Positions 4,082-64,000 of a DNA stretch of 64,000 bases are shown piece by piece (position 1 is the stretch's first letter; every line of letters begins with the position of its first letter). The stretch is from Candidatus Uhrbacteria bacterium. Lineage in GTDB: Bacteria > Patescibacteriota > Patescibacteriia > GWA2-47-26. The stretch is from NCBI GenBank assembly GCA_016187515.1, contig JACPJN010000006.1, forward strand, positions 257,556 to 321,555, given 5' to 3'. The notes under the pieces are model-generated. The model searched no databases and had not been told where the DNA came from. It saw only the letters and a program-made list of their open reading frames with translations. Made by a program: the position numbers and the translations under genes.

Positions 4082-5275
4082 CTAACTCCAATCTTCCTCC
4101 AGGTCCCCCGGCTGATCGCCGACCCGCGCTTGATGAATGGCGAGGTAAGCCCGACACTTAAGCCGCAGTGTTCCCACCTGTTCAGCAACACGCCGGGCGC
4201 GGCTAAACTCATTATGATGAACAAGAGCTTGTACAAGACAGAGGCGTGCCGTATCAACTGCCGGCGTAGCGATCTTCTCGTATGTGTGCACTGCCTCATC
4301 AAGATCAGTACTCATACCTCCTTGGCTTGCCGCAATCTCCGCGAACAGAATACAGCGTTCGGTAGCATGTGGGCGAGACTTAGCAAACTGCCGTGCGGCA
4401 TTAAGTTTCCCACACTTTGCAAACGATGCTACAAGAAAATGCAGCCCTTTTACGCGCAACTTAGGACATGCTTGTGCCTCTTTTAGTAAGGTTCGCAAGT
4501 CATCCACTTCTCCCGAGTGTTGTACTATTATCGCCCATGCTGCCACTCTGGCTTCAGACAACTGCGCGGATGCAGCAAGTGCTCTCGCCCGAACCAGTTC
4601 CCCTGCTTCACTAAAGGCACGGATGAGTGGCAATTGCAACCATGCTACCGCTCTTGCGCTGTCGGCATTTCTGGCGAACGCATCCCGAACCTCGGTTGCG
4701 AGCTGTAAATCTCCGGATTCACCGGACATCGCAGCAACAAGACCACAACATCGAAATTTTTCATCCAGGCGTTGCGTGCTTTGAGTACAACGGCGAGCCT
4801 CCTCCAGTATCTCATAAAGATTACTCTCCTTAAAGATCTGAAGGAGCGCCCTTGCTCTAGATGAGGAGTCTGGGATGAGGCGTGCGATCCTTAATGCTTC
4901 CTGTATATTCCCGCAGGACAAATATGCACGCGATGTCGCTATGTATGTTTCTCCTGGAGTAGAGGGACCCTCTGGCAAGCTGGCCGCCTCTTCTACAACT
5001 CGCTCGAGGTCAAGCGGGTTACGAGTAACTGCGGCAATATCGGCGAGTCCACACACTAGCTCCTGGATATGCGTTTTGGCAGTAAAGACCTGCCGAGCCA
5101 AAATGAGCTCGTCGGTGACCGCAAATACAACTCCTGGATTTGCGAGATAACGCCGCAGGCTCGCAAGAGATACTCGACCCTCTTTGTAAAGTCTGGCCAG
5201 TACTTGGATGAAAGGAGCTAGGTCAGAAATTACTTCAATTGCAACCGTATTTTTCTGGCTCATGGCCTCCTCCAT
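4082..5275 (-). CDS. hypothetical alpha-helical repeat (TPR/HEAT-like) protein, 397 aa
   Basis: An intact 397-aa ORF rich in A/L/R/E with repeated helical segments. A strong GGAGGAGG RBS precedes the ATG. A terminator-like hairpin lies at 3822-3850 downstream. No family could be assigned by eye. Confidence 0.5.
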   Translation of the reverse strand: MEEAMSQKNTVAIEVISDLAPFIQVLARLYKEGRVSLASLRRYLANPGVVFAVTDELILARQVFTAKTHIQELVCGLADIAAVTRNPLDLERVVEEAASLPEGPSTPGETYIATSRAYLSCGNIQEALRIARLIPDSSSRARALLQIFKESNLYEILEEARRCTQSTQRLDEKFRCCGLVAAMSGESGDLQLATEVRDAFARNADSARAVAWLQLPLIRAFSEAGELVRARALAASAQLSEARVAAWAIIVQHSGEVDDLRTLLKEAQACPKLRVKGLHFLVASFAKCGKLNAARQFAKSRPHATERCILFAEIAASQGGMSTDLDEAVHTYEKIATPAVDTARLCLVQALVHHNEFSRARRVAEQVGTLRLKCRAYLAIHQARVGDQPGDLEEDWS

Positions 5276-12188: not shown

Positions 12189-13520
12189 TTACCGCGGCAG
12201 CGGGCTGAATTTTTGTCCAAGTTCCCAATTCGGATCCACATCCAGTTTTTGCCACGGGGTAAACCCCCACACCAAAGGCCGCCGTTTTCCCCGTTTTGGT
12301 GTGGGGGTAAATTGTTTTGCCTGCGCCATAAAATAGCCGGCCACGGCAATCATGGCGGCGTTGTCCGTCGCGTATGCGACGGATGGCATAGAGCATAGAG
12401 CAGATGGCGTATGGCGTTTTATGGCTTCTACCAACCGCTGGCGTAATCTGGCGTTCGCTGCTACGCCGCCACCGAGGAGAACGGTTTTTACTTTGTATTT
12501 TTTTGCGGCACGAATGGTTTTTGAAACCAATACATCCACCACCGCCTCTTGAAATGCATAACACAAGGAAGCTAAGAGCTTAGGGCTAAGGGCATAGAGT
12601 TTTGCTCTATGCTCTATGCTCTGCGCTCTAAGCCAATAGAGTACGGCGGTCTTAAGACCGGAAAAACTAAAATCAAAATCCGGAGAATCAATCATGGGGC
12701 GAGGGAAAGTTAGGTGATTAGGTACGTAGGTAGTTAGGTACGTAGGTTTGTTTCCCGCGTACCTTCGTACCTTAGTACCTTCGTACCATTTCTCGGCTTC
12801 CCGAGAAATGGCCGGCCCTCCCGGGTAGCCGAGATTAAGCATCTTCGCCACTTTATCAAACGCCTCTCCGGCCGCATCGTCGCGCGTCTCACCAACAATT
12901 TTAAAATCCAAATGTCCGCGCATGAGCACCAGTTCAGTGTGGCCACCACTCACAATCAGCGCAAGCGCTGGGAATTGCATAGGGCTTAGGGCGTAGTGCG
13001 TAGGGTTTTGCTCTATGCTATATGCTCTATGCTCTATGCTGCGAATTTTCTCTCCGAGAAAATTCGCATACACATGTCCCGCCAAATGATTAACCGCCAC
13101 CACTGGTTTTTTCCAAAGCCAAGAAAGAGTGCGGGCCACCTCCACCCCCACAAGCAATGAGGTTGCCAATCCCGGACCGGCAGTAACGGCAATGGCGTCA
13201 ATTGAAGAAGACCAAGCGACTAAGCGACTAAGCGACTGGGTCGTTTGCTTTTTCTTAATCTCTTCATTTCTTAATCCCTTAATCGCTCTTTCAATCACCG
13301 GAATAATCTTCTCCACATGCGCCCGCGCCGCCACCTCCGGAACCACTCCGCCCGTTTTCGCATGAATTTTAATCTGGGACGCTATAATGTTACTTAAAAC
13401 TGAACAACGAAACGACTGAACAACCGGTTGTTTCGTTGTTTCGTTGCTCCGTCGTTCAGTTATCTCCACCACCGCCGCCGCCGTCTCATCACAACTCGTT
13501 TCAATCCCCAAAATTCTCAT
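12189..13520 (-). CDS. tsaD: tRNA N6-adenosine threonylcarbamoyltransferase TsaD (Kae1/Gcp), lengthened by about 100 aa of in-frame repeat insertions
   Basis: MRILGIETSCDETAAAVV…, HLAGH, GGGVAAN. The protein is 443 aa against about 340 aa typical. The extra segments coincide with hairpin repeat blocks at 12381-12425, 12571-12633, 12711-12811, 12977-13067 and 13201-13300. Confidence 0.85.
   Translation of the reverse strand: MRILGIETSCDETAAAVVEITERRSNETTKQPVVQSFRCSVLSNIIASQIKIHAKTGGVVPEVAARAHVEKIIPVIERAIKGLRNEEIKKKQTTQSLSRLVAWSSSIDAIAVTAGPGLATSLLVGVEVARTLSWLWKKPVVAVNHLAGHVYANFLGEKIRSIEHRAYSIEQNPTHYALSPMQFPALALIVSGGHTELVLMRGHLDFKIVGETRDDAAGEAFDKVAKMLNLGYPGGPAISREAEKWYEGTKVRRYAGNKPTYLTTYVPNHLTFPRPMIDSPDFDFSFSGLKTAVLYWLRAQSIEHRAKLYALSPKLLASLCYAFQEAVVDVLVSKTIRAAKKYKVKTVLLGGGVAANARLRQRLVEAIKRHTPSALCSMPSVAYATDNAAMIAVAGYFMAQAKQFTPTPKRGKRRPLVWGFTPWQKLDVDPNWELGQKFSPLPR
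12571..12633. repeat. heptamer hairpin (GCTAAGA/GCATAGA family) in-frame in tsaD
   Basis: gctaagagcttagggctaagggcatagag-tttt-gctctatgctctatgctctgcgctctaagc. Confidence 0.65.
12711..12811. repeat. octamer hairpin (AGGTACGT units) followed by a second short hairpin, in-frame in tsaD
   Basis: aggtacgtaggtagttaggtacgtagg – tttgtttcccgcg – taccttcgtaccttagtaccttcgtacc, then ccatttctcggcttcccgagaaatgg. Confidence 0.6.
12977..13067. repeat. heptamer hairpin followed by a short hairpin, in-frame in tsaD
   Basis: gcatagggcttagggcgtagtgcgtagggttttgctctatgctatatgctctatgctctatgc, then gcgaattttctctccgagaaaattcgc. Confidence 0.6.
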
Positions 13521-26711: not shown

Positions 26712-28121
26712 ATGCTCTACTTACTACTTACTACTTACTACTTACTTTTCGCCCTCCTGGCCTGGAAACGGCTTCACTGGGCGGTACTTTTGATTATTGC
26801 TACCCTTCCAAGCTACCTAATCCGTTTTCATCTAGGACCAATCCCGATTACACTGCTTGAGGGAATGATACTCATTGTCGTCGCAGTATGGCTGCTACGA
26901 CAGCTTAGAGCTAAGGGCTTAGAGCTAAGGGCATTTGAAACTCTACGCTCTACGCTCTACGCCCTACGCTGGCCGCTTGCGCTATTTTTAATAGCGGCCA
27001 CCGCGGCCATGTTCGTTGCTCCGGATTGGCGCGCTGCGGCCGGTATTTGGAAGGCCTACTTTATTGAACCGACTATTTTCTTCTTGATCTTGCTTGATCT
27101 CAAACTTCACCACCCCGCCCTTCTTGATAACAACAAAATTATCCGCGCACTTTCTGTTTCCGCTCTCCTGCTTTCCGTCTACGCTATCTGCCAGCGCTTG
27201 ACCGGCTTTGGAATTCCTGCGCCATGGGACGCGGAGCTGCGGGTTACCAGCATTTTCCCATATCCCAACGCGCTTGGCCTTTTCCTTGCGCCTCTTATAC
27301 CGCTGATGATTGGAATGTTGATAGAATCTAGAAGCTGGAAAATAGAAAATAGAAAATTCTACTTACTACTTACTACTTACTACTTACTCGCAATTATCTC
27401 TTCAATAATTGCGATCGCTTTCGCCAAATCCACCGGCGCGCTGGTGGGAATCGGGGCAGGATTAATTACTATGGGTATTTTGTGGTTGCGGCAAAAATCG
27501 TGCGGCCGCACTCAATCTACCGTAGTCGCTTTGGGAATATTTGCTACACTTGCGGCACTACTTCTCATATTCTCTCTTCCAGCGCGAGATGAACTTCTTC
27601 TCCGCGACTGGTCCGGCCATGTCCGCCGCACGCAGTGGAGCGAGACCATTGTCATGCTCAAAGACCACCCACTACTTGGCGCCGGACTCGCGGGCTACCC
27701 CGAAACACTCAAACCATACCACAAGGCAACATACATCGAGATTTTTCAGTATCCGCACAACATCGTGCTCAATTTCTGGTCCGAAACCGGCCTGCTTGGC
27801 CTTCTTGCCTTTGCATGGCTTACTATCATATTTTTCCGCATAGCACTACTCAACACTCGTAACCCCTCCCAACCTCCCCTTACCCTAAGGGGAGGAGACA
27901 AAACAATCCCCCCTCTTAAGGTAAGAGGGGGCGGGGGGAGTTATGAACTCATCCCCATCGCAGCCATGGCAAGTATGACCGTGCTCCTCGTCCATGGTCT
28001 GGTTGACGTTCCCTACTTCAAGAATGACCTTGCCATTTTGTTCTGGATCGTGTATGCTTTGGGCGTTGTAAATAATAAGAACTCTTATGCAACATCTAAC
28101 CAAACTCTTCAAACTCATTGA
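26712..28121 (+). CDS. O-antigen ligase / polymerase-like (Wzy_C domain) membrane protein, with in-frame repeat insertions
   Basis: Polytopic membrane protein with HNIVLNFWSETGLLGLLAF (Wzy_C). Repeat blocks lie at 26715-26750, 26904-26968, 27355-27390 and 27859-27945. Confidence 0.7.
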   Translation: MLYLLLTTYYLLFALLAWKRLHWAVLLIIATLPSYLIRFHLGPIPITLLEGMILIVVAVWLLRQLRAKGLELRAFETLRSTLYALRWPLALFLIAATAAMFVAPDWRAAAGIWKAYFIEPTIFFLILLDLKLHHPALLDNNKIIRALSVSALLLSVYAICQRLTGFGIPAPWDAELRVTSIFPYPNALGLFLAPLIPLMIGMLIESRSWKIENRKFYLLLTTYYLLAIISSIIAIAFAKSTGALVGIGAGLITMGILWLRQKSCGRTQSTVVALGIFATLAALLLIFSLPARDELLLRDWSGHVRRTQWSETIVMLKDHPLLGAGLAGYPETLKPYHKATYIEIFQYPHNIVLNFWSETGLLGLLAFAWLTIIFFRIALLNTRNPSQPPLTLRGGDKTIPPLKVRGGGGSYELIPIAAMASMTVLLVHGLVDVPYFKNDLAILFWIVYALGVVNNKNSYATSNQTLQTH

Positions 28122-33186: not shown

Positions 33187-34542
33187 ATGTCCACTTTTCA
33201 ATCTGCCCTTACTCAACTGGAGCGGGCGGCAAAACTGATCAATCTTGATCCGAGAATTTTAAAAGTTTTGGAAACGCCAGAGCATTTGCATGAAAAAACC
33301 CTGACGATAAAAATGGATAACGGATCCGAGCAGGAGTTTCACGCGTATCGGGTACAACATAACAATTCCCGCGGCCCGTACAAAGGCGGCATCCGTTTTC
33401 ATCCGCAAGTTGACATGGACGAAGTCAAGGCGCTCGCGCTCTGGATGACGATTAAAACCGCCGTGGTGGATATTCCATTTGGCGGAGCCAAGGGCGGCAT
33501 CACGGTTGATCCGAAAAAACTCTCTGCCCGTGAACTTGAAGAACTCTCCCGTCAATATGCGCGGGCGTTTTTTGATATTTTAGGTCCGGACAAAGATGTC
33601 CCGGCGCCGGATGTAAATACCAATCCGCAGATTATGGGGTGGATGACGGATGAATATGCAAAATTGGCAAAGGGTGGAGAGCAAAGGGCAAAGGGCTCTA
33701 CGCCATATGCTATAGGCCCTACGCAGCTGCAAGCGACGTTTACCGGAAAATCCATTGCTCATGGAGGATCTGAAGGTCGCGAAGAAGCAACCGGCTATGG
33801 AGGTTTTGTAGTGCTGGAGGCACTCCGTGTTAAACAAAGGGTAAAGAGCTTAGAGCAAAGAGCAAACAACTCTACGCCCTATGCCCTACGCCCTACGCCA
33901 ACAGTTGCCGTTCAGGGTTTTGGAAATGTTGGTTATTTTTTTGCGGAGCACGCGCACCGGGCCGGATACAAACTCATCTCCATCTCCGATTCCCGCGGCG
34001 CAATTTTGGATAAACGCACGCTCGGCATGGATCCGGAAAATATTATGAAGACCAAAAAGGAGCGCGGCACAATTGGCGGATGCTATTGTATCGGCACGGT
34101 TTGCGACTGTGAAAACTATACGCAGATTTCAAATGAAGAAATATTGGAGCTTCCGGTTGATATCTTAGTTCCGGCCGCGCTTGAGGGTGTGCTCCACAAG
34201 GATAACGCGCACAAAGTGAAAGCCAAAATTATACTGGAGATGGCCAATGGCCCAACCACTCCGGAGGCCGAGCGCATACTGCTTGAGCGCGGCACGCTCA
34301 TTGTACCGGACGTACTGGCTAATGCCGGCGGAGTCGCCACTTCGTACTTTGAATGGAAGCAGAATATGGCAGGAGAAAAGTGGAACAAGGCACAAGTGTT
34401 AGCGCAACTGAAGGAAAAATTGGAGTATGCCTTTACCGAGGTCTGGCGTACTGCACAGGAACTCCACACCGATCTCCGCACTGCGGCCTATGCCGTGGCG
34501 CTCGAGCGTTTGAAACAAGCGGTTACAGTTACCAGAACTTGA
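33187..34542 (+). CDS. gdhA: Glu/Leu/Phe/Val dehydrogenase (glutamate dehydrogenase), with two in-frame repeat insertions
   Basis: KGGIRFHP, GGAKGG, GFGNVG (Rossmann). The start was set at MSTFQ (33187). Insertions lie at 33667-33724 and 33841-33900. Confidence 0.85.
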   Translation: MSTFQSALTQLERAAKLINLDPRILKVLETPEHLHEKTLTIKMDNGSEQEFHAYRVQHNNSRGPYKGGIRFHPQVDMDEVKALALWMTIKTAVVDIPFGGAKGGITVDPKKLSARELEELSRQYARAFFDILGPDKDVPAPDVNTNPQIMGWMTDEYAKLAKGGEQRAKGSTPYAIGPTQLQATFTGKSIAHGGSEGREEATGYGGFVVLEALRVKQRVKSLEQRANNSTPYALRPTPTVAVQGFGNVGYFFAEHAHRAGYKLISISDSRGAILDKRTLGMDPENIMKTKKERGTIGGCYCIGTVCDCENYTQISNEEILELPVDILVPAALEGVLHKDNAHKVKAKIILEMANGPTTPEAERILLERGTLIVPDVLANAGGVATSYFEWKQNMAGEKWNKAQVLAQLKEKLEYAFTEVWRTAQELHTDLRTAAYAVALERLKQAVTVTRT

Positions 34543-50372: not shown

Positions 50373-51293
50373 TCAACTCCGATAATACTTTGCCGCGTCT
50401 TCGGGGGAAACCGGATTGATGATAAGTCCCGAGCCGATCTCCACCCCAGCCCAAATTGAGCCGCGGGGGGTGATTTTCATGTAAAGATGCTGATCTTCGT
50501 CATGGATAACTTGGTGGAAGTAGAAATTGTAAGGAAGGTTAAGCGCGGCGATTTTTTTCAAAATGCGCTTTAGGATTTTTGCCCAAGAGAGCCGTTCGGC
50601 GTCATTTAAGAGCGTCACATTATCCAGGTGCCGGCGCGGCAGAATCCATACTTCGTAATTGTGCATAGAGGCGTAGGGAGTAAAGGCAATCACTTGCGCA
50701 TCCTCAAACACCAGCCGCGGCCCCGTGCGTTCGCGCGCGATCACATCGCAATACACACAACGGCCGGTACGCAGTTTATACGCTTGCACCTTCTGCGACT
50801 TATCAAAGAGGTGCGGAGGCAAGAAATGGGTGGCAAAAATCTGCGAATGCGCATGTTGGATTGAGGCGCCGGCCGGTCCGCCCGCGTTTTTAAAAATGAG
50901 AATGTATTCGATTTTTTTGTCTTTGGCGATAGCGTCCGTGCGCGCCGCATAGGTGGAGAGTAACTTCGCCACGTGTGGATCAGACAACTCTTCGAGATGG
51001 GTGCCATGTTTAGGGGTTTCCACCACGACTTCCTGCACGCCGTAGGCCTTGGGATTTTCCAAAGAGACGGCGGGGAATTTATTAGGGACGACTTTTATTT
51101 GCCACACTTTATTTCCTCCAACTTCCAGGACATATCCCTCCTGATCCAATTTTTCCGGGCAAAATCGGCAAGGAGGCGGCACCACTTTTTGCGGCGCAGT
51201 TGGCGCAACCTCATGCGGCCGCACCCCCCGCCTAGGCGCAATGATCACGTACTTGTCTTGAATATAATCTTTGCGGATCTCGGATCCCAGCAT
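50373..51293 (-). CDS. galactose-1-phosphate uridylyltransferase-like (GalT / HIT superfamily) protein
   Basis: CRFCPE zinc motif near the N-terminus. The HxHxQ active site reads SIQHAHSQ. Confidence 0.7.
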   Translation of the reverse strand: MLGSEIRKDYIQDKYVIIAPRRGVRPHEVAPTAPQKVVPPPCRFCPEKLDQEGYVLEVGGNKVWQIKVVPNKFPAVSLENPKAYGVQEVVVETPKHGTHLEELSDPHVAKLLSTYAARTDAIAKDKKIEYILIFKNAGGPAGASIQHAHSQIFATHFLPPHLFDKSQKVQAYKLRTGRCVYCDVIARERTGPRLVFEDAQVIAFTPYASMHNYEVWILPRRHLDNVTLLNDAERLSWAKILKRILKKIAALNLPYNFYFHQVIHDEDQHLYMKITPRGSIWAGVEIGSGLIINPVSPEDAAKYYRS

Positions 51294-51528
51294 AGGGCGT
51301 AGAGCATAGAGCTAAGAGTTAAGAATTGAGGGTGCTCCGAAAAGTTCTGATTCGCTTAGCTAATATTTCTCCCTCATTATACAGTTCTCGATATAACGGT
51401 TCTTTGATTAACCCTTTCTTGTAAGCAACGGTAAGTCCGTAAATGGTTTCGAAGATTGACCGTATCGCTATATCTAAAGTCTCGAATCTGAACATATTAC
51501 TCTATGCTCTTAGCTCTAAGCTCTATGC
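51291..51528. repeat. about 240-bp intergenic element bounded by inverted heptamer-repeat arms
   Basis: The left arm is gcatagggcgtagagcatagagctaagagttaag. The right arm is ctctatgctcttagctctaagctctatgc. It lies between the galT start and the ruvC stop. Confidence 0.5.
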
Positions 51529-57456: not shown

Positions 57457-60400
57457 CTAGCGTTTCAAACGGGTAGTTTTTACCTTGGCGGCGGCGCTTT
57501 GAGTCGCCGGGAGCGGCTTGCCGTCTTTTAAAAGCTCCACGTCCAAACATAATCCTTTAAGTTCTCGGATCAGCACTTGGAAGGCCTCGGGAATGTGCTT
57601 CTTTTGCACCGGATCGCCTTTGATAATTGACTCATACGCTTTGGATCGTCCGGTTACGTCGTCGGATTTGATCGTCAGAATTTCTTGAAGCGTATGGGCC
57701 GCGCCGTAGGCCTCGAGCGCCCAGACCTCCATTTCCCCAAACCGCTGACCGCCAAACTGGGCTTTTCCGCCCAAGGGCTGCTGGGTGATCAAGGAGTAAG
57801 GGCCGATCGAGCGCTGGTGGATCTTGTCTTCCACCATGTGCACCAGTTTCATCATATAGATGTACCCGACCGTACTCTGGCTATCAAATGCTTCTCCGCT
57901 TTTTCCGTCATAAAGCTGCACCATGCCATTTGCCGAAAATCCGGCGTTGATCAGCTCTTCTCTAATGCGCACTTCGTTGACCCCGTTTAGCGCCGGGGTA
58001 ACCACCCGGAAACCGCCGGCGTTAGCCGCGAGTCCCAGGTGGGTTTCCAGAATTTGTCCCAGATTCATCCGCGAGACCACGCCCAAGGGTGAAAGCACCA
58101 CATCCACGGGAGTTCCATCGTTTAGAAAAGGCATATCCTCCACGGCCACCACTTTTGAAATCACGCCTTTGTTGCCATGCCGGCCGGCCATTTTGTCTCC
58201 CACCTGAAGTTTCCGCATATCGGCCACGGAAATCTGGATTGACCGGGTCACGCCCGGCGGGAGTTTATCGCCGGCCTCGGCCGAAAACATTTTTATGTCA
58301 ATCACCTTGCCATGCTCGCCATGTTCCAGATATAAACTTGAGTCGCGCACGTCCCGAGCTTTTTCACCGAAAATCGCCCGCAGCAGCCGCTCTTCCGCGG
58401 AAAGTTCCGTCTCCCCTTTGGGCGTGATTTTCCCCACCAGAATATCTCCGGAGATCACCGAAGCGCCGACGCGCACGATTCCGCGTTCATCAAGATTGCG
58501 CAGTTTCTCCTCGGCAATATTGGGAATATCCGAAGTCACCACTTCCGGACCAAGTTTGGTTTCCCGCACGTCAATCGTATAGTGTTCAATGTGAATTGAG
58601 GTATAGCGATCTTGCTCAACCACCCGCTCGGAAATGATAATCGCGTCCTCATAATTGTATCCTTCCCAACTGATGAACGAAACGAGGATATTCTGACCGA
58701 GCGCCAGTTCCCCCTGATCCATCCCCGGGCCATCGGCCACTACCTGGCCGGCTGAAACCCGCGCTCCGAGCGCGACAATCGGAATCTGGTTAAGACAAGT
58801 GGAGGCATTGGAACGCAAAAATTTAGTCAGCGGAAGATTATACTCTTTTCCCGCGTCGCTTCGGATTACCACGTGCTGGCCGTCAACGGCGGAAACCACG
58901 CCGTCGGCCGGCGCGGTGACGAGGTGGCCGGAATCATAAGCCGCCCGGGACTCGACCCCGGTTCCCACGAGCGGCGCCTGCGGTCGAACGCAAGGGACCG
59001 CTTGCCGCTGCATGTTGGTGCCCATTAAGGCGCGCACCGCGTCATCATGTTCCAAAAAAGGAATCAGCGCGGTGGCAATGGAAACAATCTGGGTGGAGGA
59101 AACATCCATGTAATCAATCTCGGAGACGGGTGAGACGGCCGGCTCGCCATGCCGGCGCACATCCGCGCGCTCCGCCGCAATATAGCCCTGCTCATCAGTC
59201 GGCGTGTTTACCGAGGTGGTCGTCACGCGCTCCTCCTGGAAGGCATTGAGGTAATCCACTTCATCAGTAACCCGCATCCGCACGCTGCCGTCCGGCTGTT
59301 CCTCTTTGACGACTTTACGATAGGGCGTTTCCAGAAATCCATACTCATTGATCCGCACATAAGAGGCCAGGTGCCCCACCAGTCCGATATTGGGTCCCTC
59401 CGGGGTAGCAATCGGGCAAATGCGTCCGTAGTGCGTCGGGTGCACATCGCGCACGTCAAATCCCGCGCGCTCGCGGGAAAGTCCGCCCGGACCCATGGCC
59501 GATAATCGGCGTTTGTGTTCCAGCTCGGCCAAGGGATTGGTCTGATCCATGAATTGCGAAAGCTGGGAAGAAGTAAAGAATTCGCGAATCGCGCCCATGA
59601 CCGGACGCGCGTTAATAAGCTTTGCCGGAGTTAACAGCGCCAAATCCATGGTGGACATCCGGTCGCGCACAATCCGCTCCATGCGCATCAGCCCCACGCG
59701 AAAACGATTTTGAACCAATTCGCCGACCGGGCGGACGCGGCGATTGCCCAGATGGTCAATGTCATCCGGGTCCTCTTGAGTAACATTAAGACGAATGAGT
59801 TCGCGGACAATCGCCACGATATCTTCTTTTTTTAAAATACGCTCCTCGCGGGATTCAATCGCCGCTTTTCTGGTGATCCCCTCCGGCGCGCCGAATTTCT
59901 GCAGGAATTTATAGCGCCCGACCTTGCCGAGATCATACCGATCAAAGTTGAAAAACATGTTGTAGATCAAACTTTTGGCATTATCAACCGTCGCGAGGTC
60001 CCCCGGGCGGATGCGCTTGTACACTTCGATCAGTCCCTCATCCATATTTTTCGCGACATCTTTAGTCAGGGTTACGTCAATGTATTTCAGATTGGTGCGG
60101 GTATCCATATCGCCAAACAAACTCCGCAGCTCCTCTTCTTTCTCATATCCAAACGCGCGCAAAAGCGAGGTGACCGCCACTTTCCGTTTGCGATCGATCT
60201 TTACCCAAATTACCCCGTTCATGTCGGTCTCAAATTCCAGCCACGCTCCGCGGTTGGGAATGAGCTTCGCGCCATAATGCCGCCGACCGCGCAAAAATTC
60301 CGAGGTAAAAAATACTCCGGCCGACCGAATGAGCTGGGAAACGACCGTGCGCTCCACGCCATTAATAATAAAAGTGCCGCGGGGCGTCATTAGCGGAAGA

Positions 60401-60762
60401 TCCCCCAGATATACTTCTTGGGTCTTGACTTCTCCGCTGCGCTTATTTTGCAAACGTGCCTTGACCCGCAGCGGCGCTTCAAAAGTGACGTTTTTTACAT
60501 GCGAAGTTACCTCATCAAACTTGGGCTCGTCAAAATAATATTCATCAAACCAAAGTTCCAGATCGCGGCCGGTAAAATCTTTCATTGGCGAGACCTCTTC
60601 AAACAACTCTTTGATGCCGTGCTCAAAAAACCAGCGATAAGAATCCTTCTGGATCTCGGTAAGATCCGGAAGGACAACCTGTTCGGGAGCGGCGCCAAAA
60701 AATTTCGGCCTTTTTTCGCGGACCGGCTGGGGGGCGAAAAGTGATTTTTGCAAAGCAGGCAT
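57457..60762 (-). CDS. rpoB: DNA-directed RNA polymerase subunit beta
   Basis: 1101 aa with conserved rifampicin-cluster and catalytic regions. It sits 6 nt upstream of rpoC. Confidence 0.95.
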   Translation of the reverse strand: MPALQKSLFAPQPVREKRPKFFGAAPEQVVLPDLTEIQKDSYRWFFEHGIKELFEEVSPMKDFTGRDLELWFDEYYFDEPKFDEVTSHVKNVTFEAPLRVKARLQNKRSGEVKTQEVYLGDLPLMTPRGTFIINGVERTVVSQLIRSAGVFFTSEFLRGRRHYGAKLIPNRGAWLEFETDMNGVIWVKIDRKRKVAVTSLLRAFGYEKEEELRSLFGDMDTRTNLKYIDVTLTKDVAKNMDEGLIEVYKRIRPGDLATVDNAKSLIYNMFFNFDRYDLGKVGRYKFLQKFGAPEGITRKAAIESREERILKKEDIVAIVRELIRLNVTQEDPDDIDHLGNRRVRPVGELVQNRFRVGLMRMERIVRDRMSTMDLALLTPAKLINARPVMGAIREFFTSSQLSQFMDQTNPLAELEHKRRLSAMGPGGLSRERAGFDVRDVHPTHYGRICPIATPEGPNIGLVGHLASYVRINEYGFLETPYRKVVKEEQPDGSVRMRVTDEVDYLNAFQEERVTTTSVNTPTDEQGYIAAERADVRRHGEPAVSPVSEIDYMDVSSTQIVSIATALIPFLEHDDAVRALMGTNMQRQAVPCVRPQAPLVGTGVESRAAYDSGHLVTAPADGVVSAVDGQHVVIRSDAGKEYNLPLTKFLRSNASTCLNQIPIVALGARVSAGQVVADGPGMDQGELALGQNILVSFISWEGYNYEDAIIISERVVEQDRYTSIHIEHYTIDVRETKLGPEVVTSDIPNIAEEKLRNLDERGIVRVGASVISGDILVGKITPKGETELSAEERLLRAIFGEKARDVRDSSLYLEHGEHGKVIDIKMFSAEAGDKLPPGVTRSIQISVADMRKLQVGDKMAGRHGNKGVISKVVAVEDMPFLNDGTPVDVVLSPLGVVSRMNLGQILETHLGLAANAGGFRVVTPALNGVNEVRIREELINAGFSANGMVQLYDGKSGEAFDSQSTVGYIYMMKLVHMVEDKIHQRSIGPYSLITQQPLGGKAQFGGQRFGEMEVWALEAYGAAHTLQEILTIKSDDVTGRSKAYESIIKGDPVQKKHIPEAFQVLIRELKGLCLDVELLKDGKPLPATQSAAAKVKTTRLKR

Positions 60763-60826: not shown

Positions 60827-61042
60827 GATTTAGGCTGGGGTATGAAGGTAAAAAATACGCTTCACGGCAAGGATTTATATCGCGTAATCCTTTTGGTATG
60901 GAAGACCGGCGGAATTTTCGCTAATTTCAGCCCAAATTCAGGTGAGGCGTGCCACTAAACAGCAAAGTATCCCTACTCTACCAGATTGGGTTGTTCTTGT
61001 CAAGTTTAGGAAACCGTGATAAGTTATCCACAGGAGGAATTC

Positions 61043-61855
61043 ATGGCCAAAAAGCCGGCAAAAAAGAAGAAGGAAACCCAGTCGCCCGCGCAAGCTCTGG
61101 AAGAGGCCTTTCAAGAGCTTGGAAAGTTGCTCGGCGGTACTGCCGCGTTTACGGATGAAGATGATAAAGATGGGGAAGTGCCGGCGATTTCCGGCGAAGC
61201 GCGCGCAGCAGATGTTGCGCGGCTGGTCCTGCGGCTGCGCTCCGTCATCAACACGCTTGGACGGCCAAACAGACAACTGACGAAAGTCCTGCGTCAGTTT
61301 GTCGCGCAAAATCCAACTGGCTGGATTCAGGCGGCCACGGTTGAAAAACAGCATCTTTGCTGGATTACTCCGGATGGCACGATCAAGGTTGTTTTGGTGG
61401 ATAGCCCGACCCATGGGCTGCCGGTAGACGATTTGTTGGCGCTTGTGGGGCTGAAGCAGGCCTTGCCGTTTCTCAAAGTGGATTACACCGCTGTTTGCAA
61501 AGCCGCCGAGAGTGACCAGCTTCGAAATGGCGAGGATGTGCTCGTGGCTGTTGAGGAGATATTGGCACGCCGCGTGCGCGAGCCGCGTGAAAAGCGGGTG
61601 GATATTGACTCGCTTGATCCTGCCGATACCACGCCGCTCGTGGCCGTGATTGATCCGGAAATCGCGCGGGAGCGTCTGGAAGAGCTGGAGTCGCTCGGAC
61701 TTTCGGCTGCGACCATCACCGCGCTTCGCAAAAACGGTATCAATGCCGCGTGGGACCTGCGTCACCTTTCCGGCGAAGAGATCGCTGCGCTGGAAGGCAT
61801 TGGCGAAAAGCGTGCCGCCGAAATCATGGCCGCGATTATCAAGCGCGTGAAGTAA
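61043..61855 (+). CDS. hypothetical Lys-rich protein with a C-terminal helix-hairpin-helix motif
   Basis: The start was set at MAKKPAKKKK, which has an AGGAGG RBS. The C-terminal region LRHLSGEEIAALEGIGEKRAAEIMAAI is HhH-like. Confidence 0.45.
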   Translation: MAKKPAKKKKETQSPAQALEEAFQELGKLLGGTAAFTDEDDKDGEVPAISGEARAADVARLVLRLRSVINTLGRPNRQLTKVLRQFVAQNPTGWIQAATVEKQHLCWITPDGTIKVVLVDSPTHGLPVDDLLALVGLKQALPFLKVDYTAVCKAAESDQLRNGEDVLVAVEEILARRVREPREKRVDIDSLDPADTTPLVAVIDPEIARERLEELESLGLSAATITALRKNGINAAWDLRHLSGEEIAALEGIGEKRAAEIMAAIIKRVK

Positions 61856-62121
61856 TGTATCGGCGGAAACCGAAACGCAAGGGAAAAGGCCCGCGCACCT
61901 GGGGGGAAGTGTATCGCGAGCTTGCGGCGATTGGGGCCAGGGCGGATGAGCTCTTTGCGCGGTGGAGTACGCGGATGGAGGAGGCGCTCGCGCGGGCGGG
62001 CTGTTGCATCACGATTGCCGAGATCCTCCGCGAGTTTCGCGCTCGCGCCTGGGCTCGCGCGGTGCGCGAACAGGAACAGGGTCAAAACCCGCGCAGAAGT
62101 AAACAGCTTACGTTGTTTTAG
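61855..62121 (+). CDS. small basic hypothetical protein, 88 aa
   Basis: An intact ORF that starts at the stop of the previous gene. A terminator-like hairpin follows at about 62126-62170. Confidence 0.35.
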   Translation: MYRRKPKRKGKGPRTWGEVYRELAAIGARADELFARWSTRMEEALARAGCCITIAEILREFRARAWARAVREQEQGQNPRRSKQLTLF

Positions 62122-62188: not shown

Positions 62189-64000
62189 ATGCAAAAATAT
62201 GATCACAAGAAAATAGAAAAAAAGTGGCAGAAACGCTGGGAAAAGGAAAGCGTGTTTGCGGCCAAGGATTTTATCAAGCAGCCAACATTTTACGCGCTGG
62301 TGGAGTTTCCCTATCCTTCCGGAGAGGGCTTGCATGTTGGCCATCCGCGTTCTTATACGGCGATGGATATTGTCGCGCGTAAGCGGAGAATGGAAGGATA
62401 TAATGTTTTGTATCCGATTGGATTTGATTCGTTTGGATTGCCCACGGAAAATTACGCGATAAAAACCGGACGGCCGCCGGCGGAAATAACGCGCGAGAAC
62501 ATCGCCAATTTTACACGGCAGTTAAAAATGCTCGGTTTTAGTTTTGACTGGGCCCGGACTGTAACGACCAGCGACCCGGCGTATTATAAATGGACGCAAT
62601 GGATTTTTTTGCAATTGTTTAAACACGGACTAGCGTACAAAAAAAAGATGGCAATTAATTGGTGTTTGTCTTGCAAAATCGGTTTGGCTAATGAAGAAGT
62701 AGTGGACGGCGCCTGCGAGCGCTGTGGCGCGTCGGTTGAAAAGCGCGAAAAAGAGCAATGGATGCTCGCGATTACCAAATACGCTGACAAATTACTCGAA
62801 GGTCTTAAAGAAGTGGACTATATTGAGCGCGCGAAGGTACAGCAGGAAAATTGGATTGGACGGAGCGAAGGAGCCATTTTGAAATTCCAAATTACAAATC
62901 CCAAATCACAAACAAATTCCAAATCTCAAATTCCAAATTCCAAACTTGAGATTGAAGTGTTTACCACACGCCCTGATACGCTTTATGGGGCGACATATTT
63001 GGTGCTGGCGCCGGAGCATCCGGTGATTGGAAATTTGAAATTAGAAACTAGAAATTTGAAAGAAGTGGCGAAATATATAGAGATAGTGAAAAAGAAAACG
63101 GAAGCGGAGCGGATGAGTGTGGAGCGCGAGAAAACTGGGGTGGAACTCAAAGGAATAAAAGCAATAAACCCGGCAACCAAAGAAGCAATTCCGATTTGGG
63201 TGGCGGATTATGTGCTTGCCGGATATGGCACTGGCGCGATCATGGCCGTCCCGGCGCATGACGAGCGGGATTTTGAGTTTGCGAAAAAGTATAATCTTCC
63301 CGTGAGACATGTAGTAATGCCGAGTCTTGTTGATGGAACAAACCCGCCGAAGGACGGAAAGGAAGATACCTTTCGCAATATGATTCTCGCGATTCTGTAT
63401 GACCCGAAGGCGAATAAATATCTTACCTTGAAATGGAAGACACAGCCGTGGAGAACATTTGTCACAGGCGGCATTGAAGAAGGAGAAGATTCGGCGGCAT
63501 CGGCGCGCCGAGAGATTGCCGAAGAAACCGGATACACCAACGTGCGTTTAGTTAGAAGCTTAGGTATGACCGAGGCATTTTTCTTTGCGGCCCATAAAAA
63601 CGTGAATCGCAAAGTTCATGGGAACCACTTTTTGTTCGAGCTGATAGATGACACGCGAGTATCTATCAGCGACAAAGAAAAAGACCAGTACGATATCCAG
63701 TGGCTCTCTCCTGAAGAGCTGCGCGCGACGCATATGCAGCATGCCGAATTTGATATTCTTTGGGACCGTATTCAAACTGGCAGCGATGTATATACAGGTC
63801 CAGGCATTCTCGTAAACTCTGGGCAGTTCAATGGACTAGAACATGAAACCGCCAAATGGAAAATCACCGAAGCAGTGGGTGGTCAGCGAAAAGTTACCTA
63901 CAAACTCCGCGATTGGGTGTTTTCCAGGCAAAGATATTGGGGCGAACCCATCCCGCTGGTGTTCTGCGAACACTGCGCGGGAATAACCAATAACCAAGAA
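62189..64000 (+). CDS. leuS: leucyl-tRNA synthetase (partial, continues past the window) carrying an embedded Nudix hydrolase domain and an in-frame repeat insertion
   Basis: Class I HIGH motif (PYPSGEGLHVGH), FDSFGLP, a zinc knuckle, EVFTTRPDTLYGATYLVLAPEHP, MAVPAHDERDFEFAKKYNLP, then about 150 aa with a perfect Nudix box GGIEEGEDSAASARREIAEETGY, then GILVNSGQFNGLEHE…RDWVFSRQRYWGEPIP. Confidence 0.9.
   Translation, partial: MQKYDHKKIEKKWQKRWEKESVFAAKDFIKQPTFYALVEFPYPSGEGLHVGHPRSYTAMDIVARKRRMEGYNVLYPIGFDSFGLPTENYAIKTGRPPAEITRENIANFTRQLKMLGFSFDWARTVTTSDPAYYKWTQWIFLQLFKHGLAYKKKMAINWCLSCKIGLANEEVVDGACERCGASVEKREKEQWMLAITKYADKLLEGLKEVDYIERAKVQQENWIGRSEGAILKFQITNPKSQTNSKSQIPNSKLEIEVFTTRPDTLYGATYLVLAPEHPVIGNLKLETRNLKEVAKYIEIVKKKTEAERMSVEREKTGVELKGIKAINPATKEAIPIWVADYVLAGYGTGAIMAVPAHDERDFEFAKKYNLPVRHVVMPSLVDGTNPPKDGKEDTFRNMILAILYDPKANKYLTLKWKTQPWRTFVTGGIEEGEDSAASARREIAEETGYTNVRLVRSLGMTEAFFFAAHKNVNRKVHGNHFLFELIDDTRVSISDKEKDQYDIQWLSPEELRATHMQHAEFDILWDRIQTGSDVYTGPGILVNSGQFNGLEHETAKWKITEAVGGQRKVTYKLRDWVFSRQRYWGEPIPLVFCEHCAGITNNQE
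62879..63060. repeat. split hairpin repeat (CAAATTCCAAAT family) in-frame in leuS, with the two arms flanking a conserved catalytic-core segment
   Basis: The left arm gaaattccaaattacaaatcccaaatcacaaacaaattccaaatctcaaattccaaattccaaac is at 62879-62943. The right arm ggaaatttgaaattagaaactagaaatttgaaag is at 63026-63060. The LeuS segment EIEVFTTRPDTLYGATYLVLAPEHPVIG lies between them. Confidence 0.6.

Follow-up and report, generated by a model that had tools for sequence, protein, structure and literature searches.

An exchangeable Nudix hydrolase module predicted within the editing domain of leucyl-tRNA synthetase in Patescibacteria and gut Bacilli

Background

Why would an essential aminoacyl-tRNA synthetase harbour another whole enzyme within the domain that it uses for proofreading? 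The question is raised by leuS, the gene for leucyl-tRNA synthetase (LeuRS), at the end of a 64,000-nucleotide stretch of contig JACPJN010000006.1 from a Candidatus Uhrbacteria bacterium (below, the window), where a first reading of the DNA, hereafter the original prediction, had noticed a Nudix hydrolase domain embedded in the synthetase. The architecture of bacterial aminoacyl-tRNA synthetases is generally considered to be fixed. In our comparisons this combination recurs in hundreds of lineages from two groups with reduced genomes, the Patescibacteria and a set of Bacilli abundant in human and animal guts, and the second enzyme appears to be swapped between leuS genes as a cassette. As far as sequence comparison can tell, this cassette is almost certainly exchangeable, widespread and dispensable, and sometimes multiplied or lodged in a second loop of the CP1 editing domain.

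The original prediction knew of no LeuS with an internal Nudix domain, and we likewise found no paper on a LeuRS-Nudix protein in full-text searches of the literature. Each of the two component families is familiar; judging from the literature that can be searched, the fused architecture, its LeuS-specific distribution and its cassette behaviour appear to be undescribed.

A Nudix module in the CP1 domain of LeuRS

The window gene is, judged by its motifs, a housekeeping leuS of the bacterial type, with both synthetic and editing motifs intact. Its frame was correctly read as continuous in the original prediction, no stop codon being found on the forward strand over the 604 codons from the ATG to the window end. 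Although truncated at 604 amino acids, the window protein scores 586.6 bits against the NCBIfam model TIGR00396 (leuS_bact, cut-off 548.4), and its Pfam matches comprise the class I catalytic domain, the editing domain PF13603 and PF00293 (NUDIX). The full-length counterpart, P0058, has 989 amino acids and is 100% identical to the window protein; it comes from a 356-kb contig, and its NCBI name is 'class I tRNA ligase family protein [Candidatus Uhrbacteria bacterium]'. The KMSKS motif lies at residues 758-762 of this protein. In an alignment of 111 relatives of the window LeuRS (alignment A4), KMSKS is conserved, and invariant residues mark the HIGH signature (H49, G51, H52), the threonine-rich editing motif (T260, R261, D263, T264), the editing site (H357, D358, R360, D361) and the return to the catalytic core (G539, S544, D575, W576).

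Where does the additional sequence lie? PF13603 covers residues 220-380 (E=2.8e-62) but only profile positions 1-144 of 185. Between the anchors AHDERDFEFAKKYNLP (residues 356-371, nucleotides 63254-63301) and GILVNSGQFNGLEHE (from residue 539, nucleotide 63803) stand 167 residues, fewer than the roughly 190 first estimated. In alignments with solved LeuRS, the corresponding stretch amounts to 13 residues in Thermus thermophilus (363-375), about 20 in Neisseria gonorrhoeae and 157 in the window protein, while the closest orthologue devoid of a Nudix domain (P0081) has 30 residues at the insertion point. The insertion is thus not in the catalytic core, as the original prediction had placed it, but in a surface loop of CP1 outside the Rossmann core, 15 residues past AHDERD and ahead of the last CP1 strands.

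The identity of the insert as a Nudix domain, and the exact fit of its box (GGIEEGEDSAASARREIAEETGY, residues 427-449) to GX5EX7REUXEEXGU, both hold. PF00293 matches residues 399-515 of the window protein with E=3e-13, and the insert alone with E=2.4e-14 (53.9 bits against a gathering cut-off of 21.1); no second Nudix box is present in the window. In isolation the module is predicted to fold as a complete Nudix alpha/beta/alpha domain followed by two C-terminal helices, with a mean predicted local distance difference test score (pLDDT) of 96.3, which is what would be expected of the autonomous insertion module envisaged at the outset. The AlphaFold2 model of the full-length protein (pLDDT 91.5, predicted template modelling score 0.84) aligns in Foldseek with bacterial LeuRS structures 2bte, 4aq7 and 7nu3 at TM scores of 0.79-0.84, and the extra domain occurs in none of them. 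The protein therefore shares with bacterial LeuRS (TIGR00396; 1H3N and 2BYT from T. thermophilus, 4AQ7 and 4ARC from Escherichia coli, 7NU3 from N. gonorrhoeae) the HIGH/KMSKS Rossmann core, the Zn modules, a CP1 domain with TTRPDT and AHDERD, the anticodon-binding domain and the C-terminal domain. It differs in the CP1 loop of the insertion, of 13-25 residues and with no accessory hydrolase in the solved enzymes, as against a 167-residue stretch holding a complete Nudix enzyme here. Free-standing proteins of about 160 amino acids align across the whole insert, N-terminal linker included, which indicates that a whole Nudix gene, encoding about 165 amino acids, was captured in frame.

Could this architecture be an artefact, that is, an assembly chimera, a frameshift or a standard LeuRS insertion called Nudix by mistake? 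We consider the probability negligible. A chimera or frameshift is ruled out by the open frame and by two independent, identical assemblies from different sequencing runs, which show 0 mismatches to the window over the 1812 nucleotides of leuS and 4 kb upstream. A misread standard insertion is ruled out by the PF00293 match, the match to the Nudix fold and the short loops of solved LeuRS. Both junctions (AHDERDFEFAKKY...Nudix and Nudix...G[IV]L[IV]NSG...YKLRDW.FSRQRYWG) are also kept in many sequences that are only 35-65% identical.

Table 1. Features of leuS in the window (nucleotide positions are those of the window)
Feature	Residues	Nucleotides	Strand	Remarks
leuS coding sequence	1-604 of 989 codons	62189..64000	+	ATG at 62189; runs past window end
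HIGH signature HVGH, class I catalytic site	49-52	62333..62344	+	Read from translation
CP1 editing domain, N-terminal three quarters	220-371	62846..63301	+	PF13603
Threonine-rich editing motif FTTRPDT	258-264	62960..62980	+	Read from translation
Editing-site motif AHDERD, with conserved editing aspartate	356-361	63254..63271	+	Aligns with T. thermophilus LeuRS 342-347
Inserted Nudix module	372-538	63302..63802	+	N-terminal strand and linker, alpha/beta/alpha Nudix fold, two C-terminal helices
Nudix box GGIEEGEDSAASARREIAEETGY, putative catalytic and metal-binding site	427-449	63467..63535	+	Fits GX5EX7REUXEEXGU
CP1 C-terminal remainder, GILVNSG...KVTYKLRD, back to catalytic core	539-575	63803..63913	+	Aligns with T. 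thermophilus LeuRS 376-445

Upstream of leuS, on the forward strand, lie two open reading frames (ORFs) with no Pfam match on record, at 61016-61855 (279 amino acids) and about 61856-62121 (about 88 amino acids), preceded by an rpoB-like gene on the reverse strand (57457-60762); this gene order is common to the window genome and to the locus of the Nudix-less orthologue, L084. A scan of the region upstream of leuS for promoters and terminators gave nothing above chance.

Distribution of the fusion

The same segment was sought in related sequences, and most of the related LeuRS have it. In a scan of one genome per species, 206 relatives were present among the first 600 pattern matches and the best 80 loci were inspected. 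In 78 of these 80 the Nudix match falls within a LeuS ORF of about 900-1200 amino acids (up to 1735) or in a contig-end fragment, and only two hold a free-standing Nudix gene; one locus needs UGA as a sense codon. Among the 120 LeuRS that come closest to the window protein in sequence, PF00293 is present in 118. A 202-residue query spanning the junction, run against 1.84 billion cluster representatives, returned 556 matches at E<=1e-3, of which 276 (clusters at 50% identity) reach E<=1e-10 and 73 reach E<=1e-30. All long matches examined were LeuS, with no IleS, ValS or MetS among them, and only about 27 free-standing copies of the LeuS-type Nudix were recovered. Two free-standing relatives, P0008 and P0010, have a glyoxalase, an ABC transporter and TrmB as neighbours and show no link to leuS. 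In a scan of viral contigs the LeuS-type module was absent, the only hits being remote, generic Nudix genes of 31-33% identity.

Outside the Patescibacteria, the fusion is also frequent in metagenome-assembled genomes from the gut labelled 'Bacilli bacterium', one cluster of which has 599 member sequences. The basis of this label is the length of the contigs, which reach 523 kb, together with NCBI names. We did not trust the labels other than Patescibacteria that some loci on short contigs bear, among them Gammaproteobacteria, Bdellovibrionales, Muribaculaceae, Woesearchaeota, Methanosarcinales and 'Candidatus Fimivivens' (Clostridia, on a 3-kb contig). The gut Bacilli carry a distinct Nudix subtype in the same loop as the Patescibacteria, and the NCBI annotation pipeline PGAP names their fused proteins 'leucine--tRNA ligase'. 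Many other LeuS-Nudix proteins are called only 'class I tRNA ligase family protein' by NCBI, so that annotation too stands to gain from a description of this architecture.

Two further annotation problems came to light. In P0026 and P0030, gene callers cut the fused leuS at the glycine of the Nudix box, leaving a protein that ends in ...REVQEET, and the ORF at L029 is complete only with UGA as a sense codon, consistent with recoded (code 25-like) lineages. Such cuts and recoding imply that many database entries are artificial fragments.

Loss, multiplication and other cassettes

Is the module a fixed part of these synthetases? The two LeuRS closest to the window backbone, P0081 and P0087 (80% identical), both lack it. 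P0081 is a syntenic orthologue (rpoB, two small ORFs, leuS), and its DNA is about 90% identical to that of the window on both flanks, with block 63296-63793 missing and a 90-nucleotide filler containing a palindrome in its place. No free-standing Nudix gene was found beside the Nudix-less leuS at this locus. The filler (about 90 nucleotides at the insertion point, L084 ~4735-4825) bears the imperfect palindrome GTACAAAGCTAAGCTTTGTACAG / CTGTACAAAGCTTAGCTTTG, which suggests that a small palindromic element either took the place of the module or brought about its loss.

Most of the 378 proteins with a LeuS-type Nudix hold a single copy, in the loop occupied in the window gene ('intra-CP1'). About 16 copies sit in a second loop ('pre'), past the first CP1 strand, and tandem copies occur in some LeuRS, with three Nudix domains in P0178, P0180 and L014. 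Nor is Nudix the only guest: about 29 of 403 sequences have, in addition, an alpha/beta serine hydrolase (PF06821, GxSxG retained), either in the second loop or in a third one just past RDWxFSRQRYWG...CxxC. This third loop holds a HAD phosphatase (PF13419) in five sequences, and one sequence has an extra Nudix of another type. Patescibacteria LeuRS decorated with such hydrolases include L014:3178-8382 (1735 amino acids), L002:1524-5021, L048:3586-7221, L066, L071 and L077, together with P0184, P0188, P0241 and P0244.

The gut Bacilli show variation of their own. In nine clusters (P0330, P0334, P0335, P0341 and P0345-P0349; 892-895 amino acids) the protein is about 45 residues shorter and has lost the Nudix box, a remnant of the domain being kept. 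Three clusters of longer proteins (P0363, P0427 and P0434; 1102-1105 amino acids) have two tandem Nudix domains, the first of which resembles the Patescibacteria type.

Exchange between leuS genes

If the module had been inherited together with its host gene, divergence of the two should be correlated. Among 110 full-length relatives, pairwise identities of the Nudix block and of the backbone are uncorrelated (Mantel r = -0.05, p = 0.74), whereas those of the N- and C-terminal halves of the backbone, used as a control, correlate strongly (r = 0.80, p = 0.002); an independent alignment based on hidden Markov models left the outcome unchanged. Individual pairs depart in both directions: P0064 and P0072 share 58% of their backbone and 91% of their Nudix residues, P0068 and P0177 85% and 41%. 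Likewise, Nudix copies within one LeuRS are only 21-50% identical to one another, and the same copies reach 60-79% identity with copies in other LeuRS, in either loop, though the backbones concerned are only 41-56% identical. Comparisons across loops, of 'pre' copies from one LeuRS with 'intra' copies from others, give identities of 62-74%. The window protein itself appears as a mosaic in sliding-window comparisons. Its backbone is nearest to that of P0082 and P0130, with 80-90% identity in the catalytic core and only 20-55% over residues 361-540, while its Nudix block is nearest to that of P0072 and P0064, which are 65-82% identical to it over residues 321-560 and 23-65% elsewhere. The history of the Nudix domain is thus decoupled from that of the LeuRS backbone, which argues for cassette exchange.

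Does this mobility mean that the hydrolases have no business with LeuRS at all? They could be generic house-cleaning enzymes without a functional tie to the synthetase, settled in the CP1 and Zn-module loops because these accept foreign domains and because leuS, in a reduced genome, is both essential and constitutively expressed. Recombination within the strongly conserved motifs on either side would then carry the cassette from one leuS to another. The presence of three unrelated hydrolase families across three LeuRS loops, the presence/absence polymorphism between orthologues 80% identical, the variation of Nudix copy number from 1 to 3 and the position of the mosaic break-points in the conserved CP1 flanks would all fit, and the short in-frame repeat inserts found in the same loops of the window leuS indicate that these loops tolerate insertions. 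However, this Nudix subfamily is all but confined to LeuS, with the few free-standing copies counted above; it was acquired or re-acquired there repeatedly, at two sites; and a second phylum-level group, the gut Bacilli, has a distinct subtype at the same site. Loops that are merely permissive should also show a wider range of domain types. We therefore regard a pure passenger as unlikely. Were it the correct explanation, leuS would still illustrate clearly how, in nature, domain cassettes can spread in frame within a gene that the cell cannot do without, with a bearing on the origin of multidomain proteins and, through the three permissive LeuRS loops identified, on protein engineering.

Catalysis and possible substrates

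Residues G427, G428, E433, R441, E442, E445, E446 and G448 of the box are at least 90% conserved, in alignment A4 as well as in 319 copies embedded in LeuRS. Among the closest free-standing relatives GX5Q is usual, with A or M replacing the box arginine. Strict conservation in the fusions, where free-standing relatives tolerate substitutions, points to catalysis, and the conserved metal-binding and catalytic residues make an active Mg2+-dependent pyrophosphohydrolase most likely. The module is thus probably an active enzyme and an autonomous unit tethered to CP1. It probably stands outside aminoacylation and editing chemistry, because orthologues without it exist. A non-catalytic role, in which the Nudix fold would serve as a nucleotide-binding sensor or as a structural or tRNA-binding appendage of CP1, is hard to reconcile with the conservation of every catalytic and metal-binding residue of the box in those 319 copies, and we think it very improbable.

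What might the enzyme hydrolyse? In the explanation we prefer, the cassette on CP1 would act on adenine (di)nucleoside polyphosphates (Ap3A-Ap6A) or related nucleoside polyphosphates: diadenosine polyphosphates (ApnA) would arise from the synthetase's own aminoacyl-adenylate and ATP, and the cassette would clear them next to the enzyme. The closest structural neighbour of the module is 2AZW, an uncharacterised MutT/nudix protein of Enterococcus faecalis, followed by the ApnA hydrolases Ndx1 (1VC8) and Rv2985 (9CXX) and then by RppH, DDP1 and AvrM14; oomycete WY-Nudix, Dcp2 and g5R are also among the neighbours. The neighbours next to 2AZW, together with the basic and aromatic residues conserved in the module (R396, K417, W421, K470, N473, R474 and W505 in alignment A4), are compatible with a (di)nucleoside polyphosphate.

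Several points weigh against this explanation. No family model lends support to the substrate, the scores being 24.6-28.1 bits for the RppH models (NF001936 and related; cut-offs 116-118) and 28.8 bits for NudB (NF006961; cut-off 103); these low scores, together with an uncharacterised top structure, mean that the substrate is not identifiable by homology. To our knowledge, LeuRS is not a prominent producer of Ap4A. The alpha/beta serine hydrolase and HAD modules in the same LeuRS loops are left unexplained by ApnA clearance, and the rapid turnover and varying copy number of the cassette are unusual for a housekeeping clean-up enzyme. Lastly, the nine gut Bacilli clusters that have kept a remnant without the box show that catalysis is not always maintained.

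We thus hold the explanation as a whole tentatively, placing it just short of an even chance, and an ApnA or nucleoside polyphosphate substrate, taken separately, may be somewhat less probable still. The original prediction, which pictured a fused Nudix enzyme hydrolysing Ap4A-like by-products of the synthetase, comes close to this substrate class; the functional partnership that it implied fares less well, as a genuine kinetic coupling of the module to LeuRS seems doubtful. If such coupling did exist, it would represent a form of quality control or defence not seen before in association with a synthetase.

Could the target be the tRNA end rather than a small molecule? Placed on the domain that handles the acceptor end, the module might remove a 3'-pyrophosphate from CCA, such as that left by toxSAS-type toxins, or a 5' nucleotide cap or triphosphate, so that LeuRS would gain a tRNA-end repair activity. 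Pyrophosphorylation of the tRNA CCA end by toxSAS toxins is established (bioRxiv 10.1101/2021.04.30.441581; PMC11559606), every Nudix insertion is located in CP1, to which A76 binds, and several structural neighbours (RppH, AvrM14, oomycete WY-Nudix, Dcp2 and g5R) are RNA-decapping enzymes. However, the known reversal of CCA pyrophosphorylation is performed by SAH hydrolases, not by Nudix enzymes (same sources), the RppH family scores far under its cut-off, the Nudix domain is not markedly basic by residue count from its sequence, and the module is dispensable in close relatives. On balance we find this activity improbable.

Alternatively, the hydrolase modules (Nudix, serine hydrolase, HAD) might confer immunity, by locally destroying nucleotide-type LeuRS inhibitors such as leucyl-adenylate mimics (agrocin-84/TM84 or microcin-C type), in which case their turnover would reflect an arms race. 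GNAT and serine-peptidase enzymes confer immunity to aminoacyl-adenylate antibiotics. LeuRS is attacked in nature by a toxin that mimics its adenylate (PDB 3zgz, LeuRS-TM84), and one of the curated NCBIfam models describes an IleRS carrying a GNAT domain (NF040702). The pattern observed here, with cassettes replaced independently of the host gene, variable in copy number and domain type, and gained or lost among near-identical orthologues, also resembles that of genes in conflict. Nevertheless, Nudix cleavage of acyl-phosphoramidate or sulfamoyl adenylates is not known. PADLOC returned no specific defence-model match, only PDC-S07 at 24.3 bits through generic Nudix similarity, PHROGs likewise gave generic Nudix similarity only, and the viral contig scan provided no link to phages. 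We give immunity little credence at present.

The last two possibilities can be merged into a broader one, in which LeuRS of these bacteria with reduced genomes would be a display platform for exchangeable hydrolase cassettes on its acceptor-end domain. The Nudix enzyme would then perform a second quality-control or defence reaction coupled to LeuRS, candidates being the repair of modified tRNA ends, for example 3'-pyrophosphorylated CCA, and the destruction of adenylate-like inhibitors, again with turnover driven by an arms race. This, too, seems to us quite unlikely.

Related architectures

How does the fusion compare with known systems? Relative to the Nudix superfamily at large (PF00293), the domain is peculiar in being embedded inside a domain of another enzyme, and no curated NCBIfam equivalog fits it. 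The embedded copies also keep the full consensus box, as opposed to the GX5Q and A or M substitutions of their closest free-standing relatives. A curated parallel is ileS_w_GNAT (NF040702), which likewise combines a class Ia synthetase with a domain modifying small molecules and is treated by NCBIfam as a distinct architecture, although both the synthetase and the enzyme family differ; there is no comparable NCBIfam model for LeuS-Nudix. In NadM-Nudix (PMC7824862), an adenylyl-transferring Rossmann enzyme of the HIGH superfamily is fused to a Nudix hydrolase whose substrate is a related adenine dinucleotide. NadM-Nudix and LeuS-Nudix are thus alike in the covalent joining of a HIGH-superfamily adenylyl-transferring enzyme to Nudix. 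The former, however, is an end-to-end fusion that follows the metabolic logic of NAD and ADP-ribose, whereas the latter is an internal insertion in an editing domain.

Short repeats in leuS and across the window

The window leuS contains in-frame runs of 7-nucleotide units (AAATTCC nine times, ATTAGAA five times, AATAACC twice) at 62882-62945, 63026-63062 and 63982-63997, which encode low-complexity peptides such as QITNPKSQTNSKSQIPNSK. Their places are within, or next to, the loops of CP1 and of the Zn module where other Patescibacteria LeuRS have Nudix, alpha/beta hydrolase or HAD modules, and the runs belong to the same heptamer family as an inverted-repeat pair at 2653-2736.

Selfish palindromic elements inserted in frame in protein-coding genes occur in Rickettsia. 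The repeats of the window are like them in being in frame and in surface loops of conserved essential proteins, and the 7- and 8-nucleotide arrays described below resemble these elements as well. The Rickettsia elements encode no enzyme, in contrast to the Nudix cassette, which is a full, conserved catalytic domain.

Across the window, dozens of short tandem arrays of 7- or 8-nucleotide units occur, often as adjacent reverse-complementary pairs able to form hairpins (for instance at 850-923, 12386-13446, 26717-26746, 27359-27388, 33666-33899 and 51289-51525). Many lie in frame inside conserved genes, such as a tsaD-like ORF on the reverse strand (12189-13520), where about five pairs give rise to peptide inserts such as SIEHRAYSIEQNPTHYALSP.

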